Shown: piece after piece, positions 1 through 43,184 of the stretch
Numbering within the stretch: position 1 is the stretch's first letter
How the letters are laid out: each line of letters starts with the position of its first letter
NCBI GenBank assembly: GCA_028718635.1
Contig: JAQULK010000001.1
Span: 543,834-607,833, forward strand
Origin: Minisyncoccota bacterium
GTDB lineage: Bacteria; Patescibacteriota; Minisyncoccia; Phycocordibacterales; UBA9973
Length of the DNA stretch: 64,000 bases
Direction: 5' to 3'
The notes under the pieces: model-generated
Databases searched by the model: none
What the model saw: the letters and a program-made list of their open reading frames with translations, nothing else
What the model was told of the DNA's origin: nothing
Translations under genes and position numbers: made by a program

Positions 1-429
1 ATTCGGACGTCCAACGTCCGTAGATCCACACCATGTGTATTTTGCTTCGCGTTCAATTAAAGATATTCCTAGGGTTTTAGTATCTTTAATCTTTAAATTT
101 ATATTCTTAATTCTTTTAAATTCATTCTGAAGCTCATTTTTAATGGTATTTTGAGGATAAATGAAAATATTAGTTTTCGGGAAAAGCCATATATATTTTC
201 CAGAAATTTTTTTATCTACCGCACTTTTTAATGTTTCTGTATCAAGAACCTTATTACCGACGATATCCACCTCACTAATATTTATATTTTTCAAACGGGA
301 AAGAAAAACAAGCAATATAAAAAACGCTAGAACCACTATCAATAAGATCAAAATCTTATTTAAAAAAACTTTGTGCCTTCTTTTTTTTAATTCTAAGAGG
401 CCCGGAGAATTTAAAACATTTCTTTTCAT
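1..429 (-). CDS. ftsQ: Cell division protein FtsQ/DivIB, N-terminal part; the gene runs off the window start
   Basis: My own reverse-complement translation from the ATG at 429-427 gives MKRNVLNSPGLLELKKRRHKVFLNKILILLIVVLAFFILLVF...VDIVGNKVLDTETLKSAVDKK...GISLIEREAKYTW, a basic N-terminus, a TM anchor and a POTRA-like segment typical of FtsQ. It is missing from the ORF track because no stop lies inside the window. Confidence 0.5.
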   Translation of the reverse strand, partial: MKRNVLNSPGLLELKKRRHKVFLNKILILLIVVLAFFILLVFLSRLKNINISEVDIVGNKVLDTETLKSAVDKKISGKYIWLFPKTNIFIYPQNTIKNELQNEFKRIKNINLKIKDTKTLGISLIEREAKYTWCGSTDVGRPN

Positions 430-499
430 CCCAGTACTAAAATTTTAAATTGTTAATATTAGTGGTCATTTATTCTACTCAAAAATTTAGTACGGGACA
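427..499. repeat. Type-A junction inverted-repeat element (arms CATCCCAGTACTAAAATTTTAAAT / CTCAAAAATTTAGTACGGGAC)
   Basis: It spans from the serS stop to the ftsQ start codon (CAT at 427-429 lies inside the left arm). Near-identical to the copy at 40407-40478. Confidence 0.75.
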
Positions 500-502
500 G
501 GT

Positions 503-1870
503 TTATTTAATGAATTCCCTACCACCCATATATTTGCGCAAAACTTCCGGAATTTTTATCGAACCATCGGCTTGTTGGTAATTTTCTACTATCATTATAA
601 GAGGCCTGCCGGAAAGAGCCGTATTGTTTAATGAATGGACAAATTTCAATTTGCCGTCATTATCGCGATAACGAATATTCAATCTGCGAGTTTGAAAATC
701 ATGGAAATAACTAGCGGAACCGGTTTCTCGGTAGGTATTTTCAGACGGCAACCAAGTTTCAATATCATATTTCTTTACTTGACCCAAGCCCAGATCCCCG
801 GCGCAATTTATAACTACATGATAAGGCAAACCTAAAGCTTCCATGATTTCTTCGGTATTCCGCTCGATCTCCTCATGAAACTTTACTGATTCTTCGTGAG
901 ATGCTTCACAAAGGACAACTTGCTCAAATTTATAAAACTCATGAACTCGAAGGATTCCTTTTGTATCTTTGCCATGACTTCCTGCCTCGCGACGAAATGC
1001 ATCAGAAAATCCAAGCATTTTTATCGGCAAATCTTTTTTTTCTAAAATTTCTCCCATATAATGTCCCATCATTGCGACCTCGGCCGTGCCAGAGAGATAC
1101 TCGCCATCTTGCGTCCTGTATAGATCTTCTTCTCCTTGAGGAAGATAACCAGTGCCTAAAAATACTTCTCGCTTTACTAAAGATGGAACTATCATCGGAA
1201 CAAAACCGTCTTTTTTAGAAAAGAAATCCTGCACAAACTGCCACAAGGCAAATTCTAATAACGCGCCATCACCCTTGAGAAAATATCCGCGAAAGCCGGC
1301 CACTTTTACACCTCGAACAATATCAACCATCCCGAGATTCTCCATGAGCTCAATGTGGTTTTTGGGAGTAAAATCAAATTTAGGAATTTCACCAAAAACT
1401 TTTACTTCTTTGTTTTCTGCGTCTGTTTTCCCTTCCGGTACAGACATATCTGGAACATTCGGCACTTGCACCATTATTTTCTGCCATTCTTCCATAGTAG
1501 TCTTTAATTTCTCTTCTTTAGCCTTGATGTCTTCTTTCACTGCGCGCATTTCCTCAATTAATTGAATTTTGGATGCTGGGTCCTGATCGCGAGATATGTC
1601 ATTCGAAACTCTATTTACTTCACTACGAAGTTCTTCCACTTCTTTGAGTTCTTTTAATCGGGTATCATCAAGCGCAATCAAAGCATCAATATCTATCTCA
1701 ATATTTTTTTTCTTCGCCCCCGCCTGCACGATATCTTTGTTTTCGCGAATAAATTTGATGTCTAGCATATTTTTATTATACACAAAAGTTGTTATAATGA
1801 AAAGCGCATAAATGATTTTAAGGAAACGTGTGGGTTCCCTGTCCTTTTGACTCCGAGGGCGCAGTTTCAA
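503..1870 (-). CDS. serS: Seryl-tRNA synthetase
   Basis: 455 aa with an N-terminal coiled-coil arm and a class II core (FRREAGSHGKDTKGILRVHEF, GSASYFHDFQTRRLNIRY) typical of SerRS. Confidence 0.9.
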   Translation of the reverse strand: MKLRPRSQKDREPTRFLKIIYALFIITTFVYNKNMLDIKFIRENKDIVQAGAKKKNIEIDIDALIALDDTRLKELKEVEELRSEVNRVSNDISRDQDPASKIQLIEEMRAVKEDIKAKEEKLKTTMEEWQKIMVQVPNVPDMSVPEGKTDAENKEVKVFGEIPKFDFTPKNHIELMENLGMVDIVRGVKVAGFRGYFLKGDGALLEFALWQFVQDFFSKKDGFVPMIVPSLVKREVFLGTGYLPQGEEDLYRTQDGEYLSGTAEVAMMGHYMGEILEKKDLPIKMLGFSDAFRREAGSHGKDTKGILRVHEFYKFEQVVLCEASHEESVKFHEEIERNTEEIMEALGLPYHVVINCAGDLGLGQVKKYDIETWLPSENTYRETGSASYFHDFQTRRLNIRYRDNDGKLKFVHSLNNTALSGRPLIMIVENYQQADGSIKIPEVLRKYMGGREFIK

Positions 1871-1896
1871 AAAATTATTTATGCGCTTTTCATTTC

Positions 1897-41561: not shown

Positions 41562-41585
41562 CCTGCCTGCCTGCCGGCAGGCAGG
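41562..41585. repeat. GC-rich palindrome CCTGCCTGCCTGCCGGCAGGCAGG (20-nt perfect core at 41566-41585)
   Basis: Intergenic in the divergent trpS/dnaB region. Same family as 17183-17216. Confidence 0.8.
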
Positions 41586-41658
41586 TTAGTAACATTTTTT
41601 ACACTACTTTACGCACTTTTAAGCTTTGACAATTTTTCTACTATGCTAGAATGGCGTA

Positions 41659-43053
41659 ATGGCAAAAGTACTAAAAAATAATAATCTCCGCATTCCTCCT
41701 CAAAGCATCCCCTCCGAACAAGCAGTCCTCGGTTCTATTATGCTCCGCAAAGATGCCATGCATGAGGTTGAAGACATGATAACTTCGGATTCTTTTTACG
41801 TTGAAAAACACAAAAAGATTTTTCAGGCAATGCTCGACTTGTCGTTAAAAAATGAACCGATAGACATGCTTTCGCTTTCCACAAAATTAAAAGAACGAAA
41901 GCTCCTTGAAGCAGTCGGTGGCAACCAATATTTAGCTGAAATTGTAAATGTTGTTCCTTCTAGTACGAATATCAAACATTATGCAGACATAGTCCAAAAA
42001 AAATACGTTCTTCGAAGCCTGATAGAAGCGGCAGATTATGTATCAGAACTCGCTTTTGAAGAAGGCGACGACCACATGAATGATATTTTAGATATGGCGG
42101 AAAAGAAAATATTCGGCGTAGTCTCCTCTCCCAAAAATCAAAAATATGTAAACTTAAAAGATGCCTTGCCAGAAGCCTATGAGCGTTTGGAAAAATTACA
42201 TGAAAATAAAGGCATGCTTCGCGGACTCGCAACTGGATTCAAAGAATTAGACACAATGCTTTCTGGGTTGCAAAAATCTGATTTGGTTATTCTGGCAGCA
42301 AGGCCGAGTATGGGTAAGACTACCCTCGCCCTAGATATAGCGCGTATGTCTGGAGTATTACATGAAAAATCTATTTTAATATTTTCTTTAGAAATGTCTT
42401 CCCAGCAATTGGTGGACAGAATGCTCTCCGCTGAGTCCCGAGTGAATGCTTGGAATTTACGCACAGGAAGACTTTCTTCCGACCGAGAATTTTCTCAATT
42501 GCGAGACTCTTTGGATAAATTGGCCAAAGCAAAAATTTATATTGATGATCAGCCGGGAAATTCTATTGTCAAAATGAAAGCGCTTTCTCGCCGACTGAAG
42601 GCAGAAAAAGGGCTCGATCTTATCGTGGTGGATTATTTACAGCTGATGACTACCTCTAAAAATTACGATTCGATGGTCAATCAGGTTACAGAAATTTCCA
42701 GATCTTTAAAAAGTCTAGCCAAAGAATTAGACGTGCCAGTCTTGGCGCTTTCCCAGCTTTCTCGTGCAGTGGAATCTCGCGGCGGCAAGCCTCGTCTTTC
42801 TGATCTTCGCGACTCTGGATCCATTGAGCAAGACGCAGACGTCGTAATGTTTATTCACCGTGAAGATAGAGGAAAAGATGAATCAGAAAAAACAAACATT
42901 GCTGAGATTTTAGTAGAAAAACATCGCAATGGCCCGACTGGGAAAGTGGAACTCTATTTTGATGAAAAGACTACTACATTCTTGAACCTTGAAAAAAGCA
43001 ATTTGAGTGAATTTACTCCATCAAAAATCAAGGGAGATCTTGATGAATTCTAA
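41659..43053 (+). CDS. dnaB: Replicative DNA helicase
   Basis: N-terminal IPPQSIPSEQAVLGSIM, Walker A ARPSMGKTT, and RecA-like motifs (DYLQLM, SQLSRAVE). Confidence 0.9.
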   Translation: MAKVLKNNNLRIPPQSIPSEQAVLGSIMLRKDAMHEVEDMITSDSFYVEKHKKIFQAMLDLSLKNEPIDMLSLSTKLKERKLLEAVGGNQYLAEIVNVVPSSTNIKHYADIVQKKYVLRSLIEAADYVSELAFEEGDDHMNDILDMAEKKIFGVVSSPKNQKYVNLKDALPEAYERLEKLHENKGMLRGLATGFKELDTMLSGLQKSDLVILAARPSMGKTTLALDIARMSGVLHEKSILIFSLEMSSQQLVDRMLSAESRVNAWNLRTGRLSSDREFSQLRDSLDKLAKAKIYIDDQPGNSIVKMKALSRRLKAEKGLDLIVVDYLQLMTTSKNYDSMVNQVTEISRSLKSLAKELDVPVLALSQLSRAVESRGGKPRLSDLRDSGSIEQDADVVMFIHREDRGKDESEKTNIAEILVEKHRNGPTGKVELYFDEKTTTFLNLEKSNLSEFTPSKIKGDLDEF

Positions 43054-43056
43054 AAT

Positions 43057-43184
43057 ATGGATCCCGTTAGAGATCGAATAGTTTGTAAATAGAATAACAT
43101 GTTAATATAACTCTATGTATAAAATTTTTATTAAAAGTAATATAACTACGGAAATGCATAGCATTTCCTATCTCTAACGGGATG
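43057..43184. repeat. Type-A junction inverted-repeat element (arms GGATCCCGTTAGAGAT / ATCTCTAACGGGATGG, inner IR GAAATGC-ATA-GCATTTC)
   Basis: It starts 4 nt after the dnaB stop. The right arm contains the recR ATG. Confidence 0.75.

Follow-up and report, generated by a model that had tools for sequence, protein, structure and literature searches.

The 64,000-nt stretch from a Minisyncoccota bacterium analysed here (in its whole length, the window) carries a short inverted-repeat element, type-A, whose copies end at the start codons of genes. We favour, with moderate confidence, the reading that type-A is an oriented, start-codon-specific element resembling MITEs, the miniature inverted-repeat transposable elements, and that in the transcript its hairpin would loop out the insert, so that the AUG stays beside a stop codon or the 5′ end. 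Judged from its sequences, the family belongs to Candidatus Nomurabacteria/Paceibacterota, which are tiny groundwater bacteria, and appears small, non-coding, palindromic and mobile, entering the first bases of genes in one orientation. The observations behind this reading are insertion polymorphism, target-site duplication, constant orientation, adjacency to ATG, hairpin potential and conservation.

Type-A copies in the window

Six copies had been reported in a sequence-only reading of this DNA, and all six were present in the sequence. Their junctions were serS/unnamed open reading frame (ORF), mraY/ftsW, pepA/scpA, ribE/ribH, trpS/TrpR-like and dnaB/recR, with flanking genes identified via NCBIfam. 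The ORF after serS, earlier labelled ftsQ, matched no NCBIfam family and that name is unverified. The family has two classes. Class ii elements were near-perfect palindromes (TCCCGT...ACGGG) with arms such as TTAGAR.., TACGAAAT and AACGAAAT. Class i elements, comprising subfamily a and the TTAAAAA, TTAGAAAA, TTATAAAT and TTAGAGAC variants, had ACYTG as their fixed 5′ pentamer, and their stem showed either a G.U pair or a bulged 3′ base at pair four or five. In both classes the gene's ATG stood directly against the 3′ end of the element. A seventh, atypical copy was also found. Minimum free energies (MFE) below are in kcal/mol.

430 to 502, minus strand: copy 1, class i, subfamily a; MFE -19.1, z -4.2; ACCTG pentamer 498-502, 5′ arm TCCCGTACTAAATTTTTGA 479-497, 3′ arm 430-449; serS stop 503-505, downstream ATG 427-429 touching the stem
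20102 to 20216, minus strand: copy 2, class ii, arms TCCCGAACGAAAT / ATTTCGTACGGG; MFE -31.9, z -4.6; direct repeat ATGAA at 20217-20221 (5′) and 20097-20101 (3′); mraY stop 20225-20227, ftsW ATG 20099-20101
29593 to 29711, minus strand: copy 3, class ii, arms TCCCGTTAGAAGC / GCTTCTAACGTG; z -3.8; direct repeat ATGGA at 29712-29716 (5′) and 29588-29592 (3′); scpA ATG 29590-29592
33313 to 33389, minus strand: copy 4, class ii, arms TCCCGTACGAAAT / ATTTCGTACGGG; MFE -28.1, z -5.4; direct repeat ATGCA at 33390-33394 (5′) and 33308-33312 (3′); ribH ATG 33310-33312
40410 to 40476, minus strand: copy 5, class i, subfamily a; z -2.7; trpS stop TAG 40477-40479 touching TCCCG, TrpR-like ATG 40407-40409
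43062 to 43181, plus strand: copy 6, class ii, arms TCCCGTTAGAGAT / ATCTCTAACGGG; MFE -36.4, z -6.4; direct repeat ATGGA at 43057-43061 and 43182-43186; dnaB stop 43051-43053, recR ATG 43182-43184
17171 to 17222, minus strand: seventh copy, outer arms TCCCGTAG...CTACAGGGA around a GC-rich palindrome; MFE -37.9, z -6.1

In transcript sense the common layout was a stop codon, a 5′ arm beginning TCCCG(T/A).., an AT-rich interior, a 3′ arm ending ..(A/T/C)(C/T)G(G/T)G, and ATG. The proposal that the downstream start lies at the end of the 3′ arm was borne out, with zero spacing in 6/6 copies. The proposed ending, ...ACGGGATG, was exact at sites 2, 4 and 6, whereas site 1 had ACTGGGATG, site 5 ACCGGGATG and site 3 ACGTGATG. 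The 5′ arm had likewise been said to overlap the upstream stop or last codons. This was true of pepA and ribE, whose stops lay inside the element, but the trpS stop merely touched it and those of serS, mraY and dnaB lay 3-9 nt upstream. Since the pepA stop (TAG, 29703-29705) fell within the 5′ arm of copy 3 and the ribE stop (TAA, 33369-33371) within copy 4, the last residues of both proteins (GSR in PepA, which ends ...GYGSR; SRTKSF in RibE) are encoded by the element. RibE does end in YASRTKSF, the residues that had been attributed to the 5′ arm; before insertion, its sequence suggests, the end would have been ...YAYKK followed by a stop, with an overlap with ribH. In copy 5 a native ACTAG stood where ACYTG was expected, and the trpS copy at locus L100 had the same TACTAG/element arrangement. 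The seventh copy did not touch an ATG. It lay directly 3′ of a stop codon (TAG, 17223-17225) and was followed by a -10 box, TGGTAGAAT, with the murG ATG (17146-17148) 22 nt further on.

Insertion polymorphism and target-site duplication

Five syntenic loci (L001-L005; Prs 82-91% identical) from Candidatus Paceibacterota metagenome-assembled genomes were recovered by a protein-guided scan of species-representative genomes with Prs. No type-A copy was found in the roughly 93 kb that they cover, against seven in the 64-kb window. The dnaB/recR junction read TTCTAAAATGGACATT in L001 (TAA-A-ATG, compact) and TTCTAAATATGGATAT (TAA-AT-ATGGAT, empty) in L007, a metagenome contig with a 95% identical RecR. 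The trpS/trpR junction of L001 read TACTAGTATGAAA (TAG-T-ATG; empty site TACTAGTATG), and pepA/scpA was compact in L003 and L005 (...AAATAAAGTGGAAACT). As the same junctions are compact in relatives, the copies in the window are insertions.

Direct repeats of the form ATGNN flanked 16 class ii copies on both sides, including window sites 2, 3, 4 and 6. NN was AA, GA, GG, AG, TA or CA and was repeated faithfully. On this sequence evidence the 5-bp repeat is a target-site duplication of the start codon, and the empty sites confirm it. The 3′ repeat opened a long ORF in all but one of the 16 copies, the exception (in L068) having 36 codons. In the window the dnaB/recR junction reads TTCTAAAAT-ATGGA-(TCCCGTTAGAGAT...ATCTCTAACGGG)-ATGGACATC, which marks copy 6 as a recent insertion with ATGGA duplicated. 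An element near-identical to copy 2 was flanked by ATGGA repeats at locus L091.

The set of filled junctions differed among the window, L001-L005, L007 and L014. At the dnaB promoter, L014 was filled (TAGAAT-AGCTTTA-ACCTG-TCCCG...GGG-ATG) and the window empty (TAGAAT-GGCGTA-ATG). The window and the distant L100 had an element at the trpS junction, whereas L014 and the closer L001 were empty there. The suggestion that type-A is a MITE-like element aimed at gene junctions is thus well supported. It can be made more precise, in that insertion is aimed at the start codon and not at the junction as such: the 5-bp duplications have the form ATGNN, orthologous sites are empty, and copies occur at promoter-proximal genes as well as in operons.

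Distribution in metagenomes

The 19-nt 5′ arm of sites 1 and 5 (TCCCGTACTAAATTTTTGA), which defines subfamily a and contains no ATG, was used to scan a metagenome collection. A 19-mer of a single subfamily was chosen, short degenerate patterns having been ruled out by the estimated number of chance matches. It occurred in at least 120 loci from many samples; 123 matches were listed, and the counts in this section are among these. Automatic parsing recovered ...TTTTAGTAC(T/C)GGG followed by ATG in 109 of the 123, and about 115 (93%) had the 3′ arm against an ATG after the rest were read by eye. None of the 123 was in reverse orientation. The ORF opened by this ATG had a median length near 190 codons, and ten of ten downstream ORFs tested were public gene calls with exactly the element-adjacent start. 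Where the source named an organism, it was Candidatus Nomurabacteria or Paceibacterota. The exceptions were one match within a phage gene (L013), a chance match and the only one on viral contigs, a few copies with the ATG displaced or lost, and one copy without a 3′ arm, at which an AAGGAG Shine-Dalgarno (SD) motif was found instead. In an orthologous trio (L048, L080 and L087) the element ended ...CTGGGATTAATA, with no ATG; a conserved downstream ORF (LI.L.., signal-peptide-like) was read in a different frame and could start only at CTG or ATA. The start codon of this trio may have been lost or may be non-canonical.

Of 114 copies that could be assessed, 78 had a same-strand ORF ending within 40 nt upstream, with 6-10 nt to TCCCG as the commonest distance. 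Most copies lay either 5-14 nt past such a stop or at the predicted transcription start of a leaderless-type promoter. The gap between the stop and ACYTG was 1-5 nt, equal to the native spacing between stop and ATG. About 13 copies were preceded by an extended -10 box (TGnTAnnnT) starting at -20/-21, from which transcription is predicted to start at the element's first base, the A of ACYTG. These promoter-type copies had the same -10 spacing as element-free window genes (TAGAAT-6 nt-ATG). One copy followed a cobalamin riboswitch (RF00174, 39.7 bits; L077, 320-466, minus strand) and its terminator and was itself followed by AUG, a sequence context that places it within a regulated 5′ untranslated region. 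The upstream flank in L010 had a near-identical terminator-like stretch directly before the element, and no riboswitch match was returned for it.

The downstream proteins represented 104 Pfam families in 102 proteins, among them RodA, FtsA, SerS, PheT, DHFR, ribosomal proteins and RNase H. Since these are housekeeping genes of unrelated families, the idea that the element defines a regulon was rejected. We also consider it very improbable that type-A works at the level of DNA or by way of a bound protein, whether as a portable promoter (TAAAAT in the 3′ arm of subfamily a), as the operator of a global regulator or as a CsrA-like site. TAAAAT was indeed invariant at -18..-13 in subfamily a, and the arms were conserved at the sequence level. 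However, a -10-like hexamer is missing from class ii arms, a promoter has no need of a 5′ arm, and the range of downstream families is not that of a regulon. The 3′ end of subfamily a (GUACUGGGAUG; e.g. 427-440, minus strand) fits 10 of 11 positions of RUACARGGAUGU, the E. coli CsrA consensus from systematic evolution of ligands by exponential enrichment. The GGGA of type-A is nevertheless in the stem, unlike the loop position of CsrA sites, and no CsrA gene was seen in the window.

Conservation and turnover

Elements were 49-125 nt long, with terminal arms of 12-20 bp and only short, non-conserved ORFs inside. Subfamilies other than a were found in the same loci by TCCCG and arm complementarity, ATG not being required. 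In subfamily a, conservation set in sharply at A-C-Y-T-G, 5 bases before TCCCG, and stopped at GGG/ATG, with nothing conserved past the ATG. Its lengths formed two groups (66-69 nt and 100-105 nt) with three recurrent interior types. A leader peptide was considered and rejected: a 10-codon ORF (MxxINKNLKF) ending at the TAG of the 3′ arm was intact in none of 56 type-1 loops and in only 20 of the 51 type-2/long loops, and with lengths that differ one base at a time (66, 67, 68 nt) the elements preserve no reading frame. The interior of class ii elements was asymmetric, in the form of a CGC/U internal loop, a 3′-strand bulge of 4 nt, or a small GGAAATGC..GCATTTCC hairpin beside the 3′ arm. These asymmetries faced the gene in the same way in 12/12 copies (bulge and loop taken from folds, the six small-hairpin copies read by eye).

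In 13 orthologous pairs, approximately 4-fold sites differed by 38-77% (53-77%, i.e. saturated, in 12 of the 13) and whole elements by 3-16%. Pooled over pairs, the difference was 3.5% in the 3′ arm, which was not part of the search pattern, 29% in the interior and 54% in the upstream flank. Interior variants seen nowhere else were shared by L031 and L064 and by a trio of ftsA loci (L018, L039 and L070). Such locus-specific variants were thus inherited, and they have been retained while neutral sites became saturated. There were also signs of turnover, since copies on the same contig could be more alike than orthologous copies elsewhere (L028, L068), and orthologous sites could carry different interior (loop) types.

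These data bear on the proposal that type-A is purely selfish, moved by an enzyme highly specific for ATG in one orientation, with the hairpin a by-product of the terminal repeats and without effect on the host. The apparent conservation would then reflect recent, repeated insertion and homogenisation within genomes, not selection. Such an element would account for the ATGNN duplications, the filled and empty sites (including those at trpS) and both signs of turnover. We nonetheless regard it as improbable. Intergenic sequence in the window contained 47 ATG starts and 98 other ATG/CAT triplets, so that targeting of ATG alone would be expected to reach true starts in about 32% of cases; the observed values were 6/6 in the window, 16/16 in class ii and about 93% in the listed subfamily a matches. 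Something more is needed, either an enzyme that reads beyond ATG in one orientation or selection that removes all copies except those with the AUG at the stem foot. The locus-specific loop variants shared by orthologues with saturated synonymous sites argue for descent and constraint, and the enzyme itself was not found in the window or in the scanned loci.

Hairpin folding and arm covariation

In transcript sense each of the six inserts folded into a single hairpin spanning the entire intergenic insert (MFE -17 to -36 kcal/mol, z -2.7 to -6.4), and only 0-2 of 200 shuffles folded as well. The hairpin had been predicted to sequester the downstream start; in the MFE structures the A of the AUG, and in most copies also the U, was indeed paired at the foot of the stem. 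The accompanying idea of a sequestered SD-like GGGA found no support, as its spacing to the AUG is zero and most window genes have no SD anyway. Among all gene starts in the window, hairpins with a 3′ arm touching the ATG at 11/12 Watson-Crick pairs were type-A only, and none occurred in the five syntenic relatives.

Covariation of the arms, also claimed earlier, was recovered. Across 18 distinct arm variants 94.4% of cells were paired, and 7 of 14 pairs were altered on both sides. The covariation score was 0.366 against 0.141 in shuffles, a value reached by 0/500 of them, and slid registers of the alignment were 35-54% paired. Pairs 1-6 (U-A with the A of AUG, three C-G, G-C or G.U, and U-A) were essentially invariant, and seven of the eight following pairs changed on both sides. 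The alignment indicates that the covariation is between discrete subfamilies. Terminal inverted repeats of a transposon would covary alike, and covariation alone is therefore no proof of RNA structure. An extension of the stem into the coding region was rejected, because position -3 did not covary with +4 (53/113 pairable, shuffle p = 0.77). In class i the ratio of G.U to A.C in sense orientation was 132:3. This asymmetry was rejected as proof of selection at the RNA level and carries little weight, because it comes mostly from one inherited position and not from independent events.

Initiation signals in the host genome

Only about 11 of the 55 genes in the window had an SD-like motif. In about 22 of 55 the ATG was preceded, at a distance of 5-8 nt, by a -10-like hexamer, often as extended TGnTAGAAT or TGnTAAAAT, with examples as follows.

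17149-17170: -10-like hexamer before ATG
22850-22870: -10-like hexamer before ATG
35664-35685: -10-like hexamer before ATG
41640-41658: -10-like hexamer before ATG
14700-14720: -10-like hexamer before ATG

Hexamers so placed indicate leaderless transcripts, and leaderless mRNAs appear to be widely used in this genome. The anti-SD motif at the 3′ end of 16S rRNA was detected in only 48% of Parcubacteria (Tsurumaki et al. 2022, PMC9297842).

Translation of genes with an element at the start codon

We infer that type-A is transcribed, folds in vivo, takes part in coupling and is moved by an enzyme. Co-transcribed with the gene, its RNA arms would pair, and the whole insert would be looped out with the AUG at the foot of the stem. 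The AUG would then lie beside its neighbour from before the insertion, which inside operons is the upstream stop and at leaderless-type promoters the 5′ end of the transcript. In this SD-poor lineage translation would begin at the 5′ end for first cistrons and by stop-start coupling for later ones. The footprint of a ribosome reaches 12-15 nt past the stop codon, so that a ribosome terminating there would open the stem at its foot and release the AUG. The downstream gene would stay translatable and insertions would be tolerated for that reason. Once in place, the stem would be kept by purifying selection, because an unfolded spacer of 70-120 nt would uncouple the genes. An earlier suggestion that the hairpin is a structural module for translational coupling agrees with this in geometry (stop 5-14 nt before the stem, AUG at its foot) and with the strong conservation of orthologous copies, but co-option is something that we infer.

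Several points weigh against the MITE-like reading. Tolerance alone explains neither the register of the duplication, which was always ATGNN (16/16) though other registers would leave the gene intact, nor the absolute orientation; both need a very specific enzyme or selection at the RNA level. Neither the window nor 0.76 Mb of loci yielded a transposase or recombinase with matching ends. The commoner of the two classes, class i, showed no direct repeat at any offset in 110 copies, and the reading gives no reason for its fixed ACYTG pentamer. A stable stem with a paired AUG would be expected to impede initiation at copies close to a promoter, which lack an upstream ribosome to open the stem. 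Finally, the arms were conserved in sequence, beyond pairing, across hosts whose proteins are 45-88% identical, which suggests a sequence-specific partner.

In an alternative that we consider possible but unlikely, the hairpin is a putative host cis signal for translation start in an SD-poor lineage and mobility is only its means of spread. Two versions can be envisaged. An endonuclease such as RNase III could cut the foot of the stem and turn internal cistrons into leaderless or near-leaderless mRNAs, or the conserved foot (UCCCGU/ACGGG-AUG) could dock on the ribosome or a factor and position the adjacent AUG. The zero spacing to AUG in about 93% of listed copies and the absolute orientation are readily understood as properties of a signal, as is a foot whose sequence is conserved in every subfamily alongside a covarying inner stem. 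Elements were also far more conserved than synonymous sites in orthologous pairs, one copy lies between the terminator of a cobalamin riboswitch and AUG, and leaderless-type promoters are common and SDs rare, with the anti-SD often missing in Parcubacteria. The G.U pairs and bulge of class i occur on the sense strand only (132 G.U against 3 A.C), but that count is mostly one inherited position. Against the signal, the same genes are without the element in close relatives (L001-L005 and L007 are empty), and it is therefore not required there. Only about 11% of window genes carry it, and class ii copies look freshly inserted, with duplications intact. That the stem is a required signal, marking or exposing the start in SD-poor Paceibacterota by foot cleavage (yielding leaderless cistrons) or by ribosome docking, is a little less likely again. 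If true, it would be a third bacterial mode of initiation, added to SD pairing and to native leaderless starts, and a mobile element would carry and spread it.

The family amounts to more than 100 natural 'insertion experiments' at start codons, in which surviving copies keep the AUG at the foot of the stem, by a stop or a 5′ end. Bacteria of the Candidate Phyla Radiation (CPR) make up a large share of bacterial diversity and have reduced ribosomes. The placement of type-A at ATG may show how these bacteria initiate without a classical ribosome-binding site, and the pattern points to testable rules of initiation and coupling in them. Oriented insertion that duplicates ATGNN at true starts would be an unusual target specificity for mobile elements. 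For annotation, the element predicts start codons, and it alters upstream C-termini (here PepA and RibE).

Comparison with known repeats

Targeted full-text literature searches returned no description of the element, and among the bacterial repeats treated in the sources consulted none had this placement, directly against the ATG of genes of many kinds and in one orientation. In Rfam, only a tRNA was found in the window at the gathering threshold, and ten element-bearing loci searched at E<=1 gave nothing on the element. MITEs are short (less than about 400 bp), lack a transposase gene, have terminal inverted repeats and a flanking target-site duplication, and occur as dispersed copies. Type-A resembles them in size (49-125 nt), in its 12-20-bp arms, in its seven window copies and at least 120 metagenome loci, and in its filled and empty orthologous sites; the duplication was present in 16 class ii copies and in none of 110 class i copies. 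No parent insertion sequence was found in the window, and no matching repeat pairs 250-4000 bp apart flanked a gene in the 0.76 Mb of loci. An autonomous element was likewise rejected, there being no long inverted-repeat pairs around a gene in the loci and no transposase domains in the window.

Like the MITEs Correia/NEMIS of Neisseria and Nezha of cyanobacteria (Delihas 2011, PMC3184786), type-A is small and non-coding, with terminal repeats, a long RNA stem-loop, subfamilies, a duplication (class ii), filled and empty sites and expected co-transcription. Unlike them, it targets an ATGNN start codon and not TA or another short palindrome, lies at a functional ATG in about 93% of cases in absolute orientation, has a class without duplication, and keeps its arms despite saturated synonymous sites; a parent insertion sequence was not found. 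Neisseria REP2 and Borrelia plasmid inverted repeats lie immediately upstream of genes and carry a promoter, ribosome-binding site and ATG (PMC3184786). Type-A shares their position, touching the ATG, but carries no promoter or ribosome-binding site, forms a single hairpin from the whole insert, lies mostly in operons after a stop, and shows duplications and empty sites.

Repetitive extragenic palindromes (REP), BIMEs and REPINs are short GC-rich palindromes after stop codons with a conserved GTAG; they depend on RAYT and have no relation to the next start. Type-A is like these proteobacterial repeats in being a conserved palindrome in operons, and REPINs are long hairpins thought to be mobilised in trans. 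Identity was rejected, as type-A arms (e.g. TCCCGTACTAAATTTTTGA) are AT-rich, not self-complementary, without GTAG and tied to ATG. Rickettsia palindromic elements (RPE) are similarly tolerated as palindromic insertions in compact genomes and can add coding residues, as at the PepA and RibE ends, but they insert in frame within genes whereas type-A lies between genes at the start codon. The start-sequestering hairpin of the MS2 coat-replicase junction and the RNase III-processed hairpins of phage T7 early mRNA and the lambda N leader are single and locus-specific. They share with type-A an AUG paired at the stem foot that an upstream ribosome or nuclease could open; type-A, unlike them, is dispersed, mobile and conserved in sequence across many unrelated genes and genomes.

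Three further candidates were rejected. Integron attC sites are imperfect palindromes bounded by 5′-RYYYAAC ... GTTRRRY-3′ core sites and lie between gene cassettes. In type-A, GTTAGAR/YTCTAAC occurred in one subfamily only, with the order reversed (the 5′ arm having GTT...), the others having GTACTAAA or GTACGAAA, and the flanking genes were syntenic housekeeping genes. An intrinsic terminator is a GC-rich hairpin with a U-run after the stem, for which there is no position here, since AUG and coding sequence follow at once. PATEs, elements derived from the IS200/IS605 type (HUH), use a pre-existing left target of 4-5 nt, make no duplication and have a subterminal hairpin at each end. Class i does have a left pentamer and no duplication, yet its empty sites are without ACYTG (window dnaB, ...GGCGTA/ATG), and type-A is one long hairpin and not two subterminal ones.

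Other repeats and neighbouring genes

A second repeat family, type-B, had a conserved core of about 75 nt (GGTACGGATTTTT..AAAAATCCTGAA..CGCGCCGNCGCGC..AAACCCCTTAAAA). Two copies, surrounded by long locus-specific inverted repeats, and a possible fragment were located in the window:

35664 to 35796, minus strand: type-B copy at the prs/aspS junction
43794 to 43904: type-B copy
12465 to 12488: possible type-B fragment

It had no Rfam match and was absent from prs/aspS in L001 and L002, where the gap was 25 nt. Insertions at dnaB/recR were found in L002 (6673-6784, with a related GCGCGACGGCGCGAG core) and in L014 (6085-6211, a candidate copy). In both, the 5′ arm was the native dnaB end, TTCTAAAAT, and the 3′ arm its inverted copy, ATTTTAGAA; in L002 this arrangement places a TAGAAT -10 box 8 nt ahead of the recR ATG.

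Some of the genes beside type-A copies were absent from all five syntenic relatives. These were ribE, ribH and the ORF at 32264-32869 (region 32264-33950), and a Fic-domain gene (36857-37921) and pheA (38281-39156) (region 36857-40115). By this comparison, the ribE/ribH/Fic/pheA region is lineage-specific gene content. Nine ORFs of about 560-600 aa were also recorded, all on the minus strand:

17223 to 18974, minus strand: ORF of about 560-600 aa
22942 to 24705, minus strand: ORF of about 560-600 aa
24736 to 26439, minus strand: ORF of about 560-600 aa
26487 to 28238, minus strand: ORF of about 560-600 aa
47357 to 49105, minus strand: ORF of about 560-600 aa
51850 to 53586, minus strand: ORF of about 560-600 aa
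58457 to 60184, minus strand: ORF of about 560-600 aa
60231 to 62030, minus strand: ORF of about 560-600 aa
61976 to 63649, minus strand: ORF of about 560-600 aa

Seven of the nine had a near-identical 3′ end (...CAGGAAGTGTATTAA and variants), and these ends suggest that they may be paralogous. Several were preceded by a common small hairpin, AACGGCCGTT or GCGGTCGTC. The two that were tested had no Pfam/NCBIfam match. Two TraG/TrwB-like genes (type IV coupling protein, HerA-like ATPase; 50241-51755 and 53648-55792) adjoined dnaK/dnaJ. A tRNA gene (9657-9740; RF00005, 58.4 bits) overlapped the start of the listed ORF 9685-10317 (TTG start), whose listed start is probably wrong.

Two GC-rich perfect palindromes each occurred twice. 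The first, CCTGCCTGCCGGCAGGCAGG, was nested in the seventh type-A copy (17183-17216) and recurred at about 41585-41612. The second, GACGTTGGACGTC..GACGTCCAACGTC, was found at 5308-5354 and 58420-58452, one copy lying in the topoisomerase I gene and one between convergent genes.

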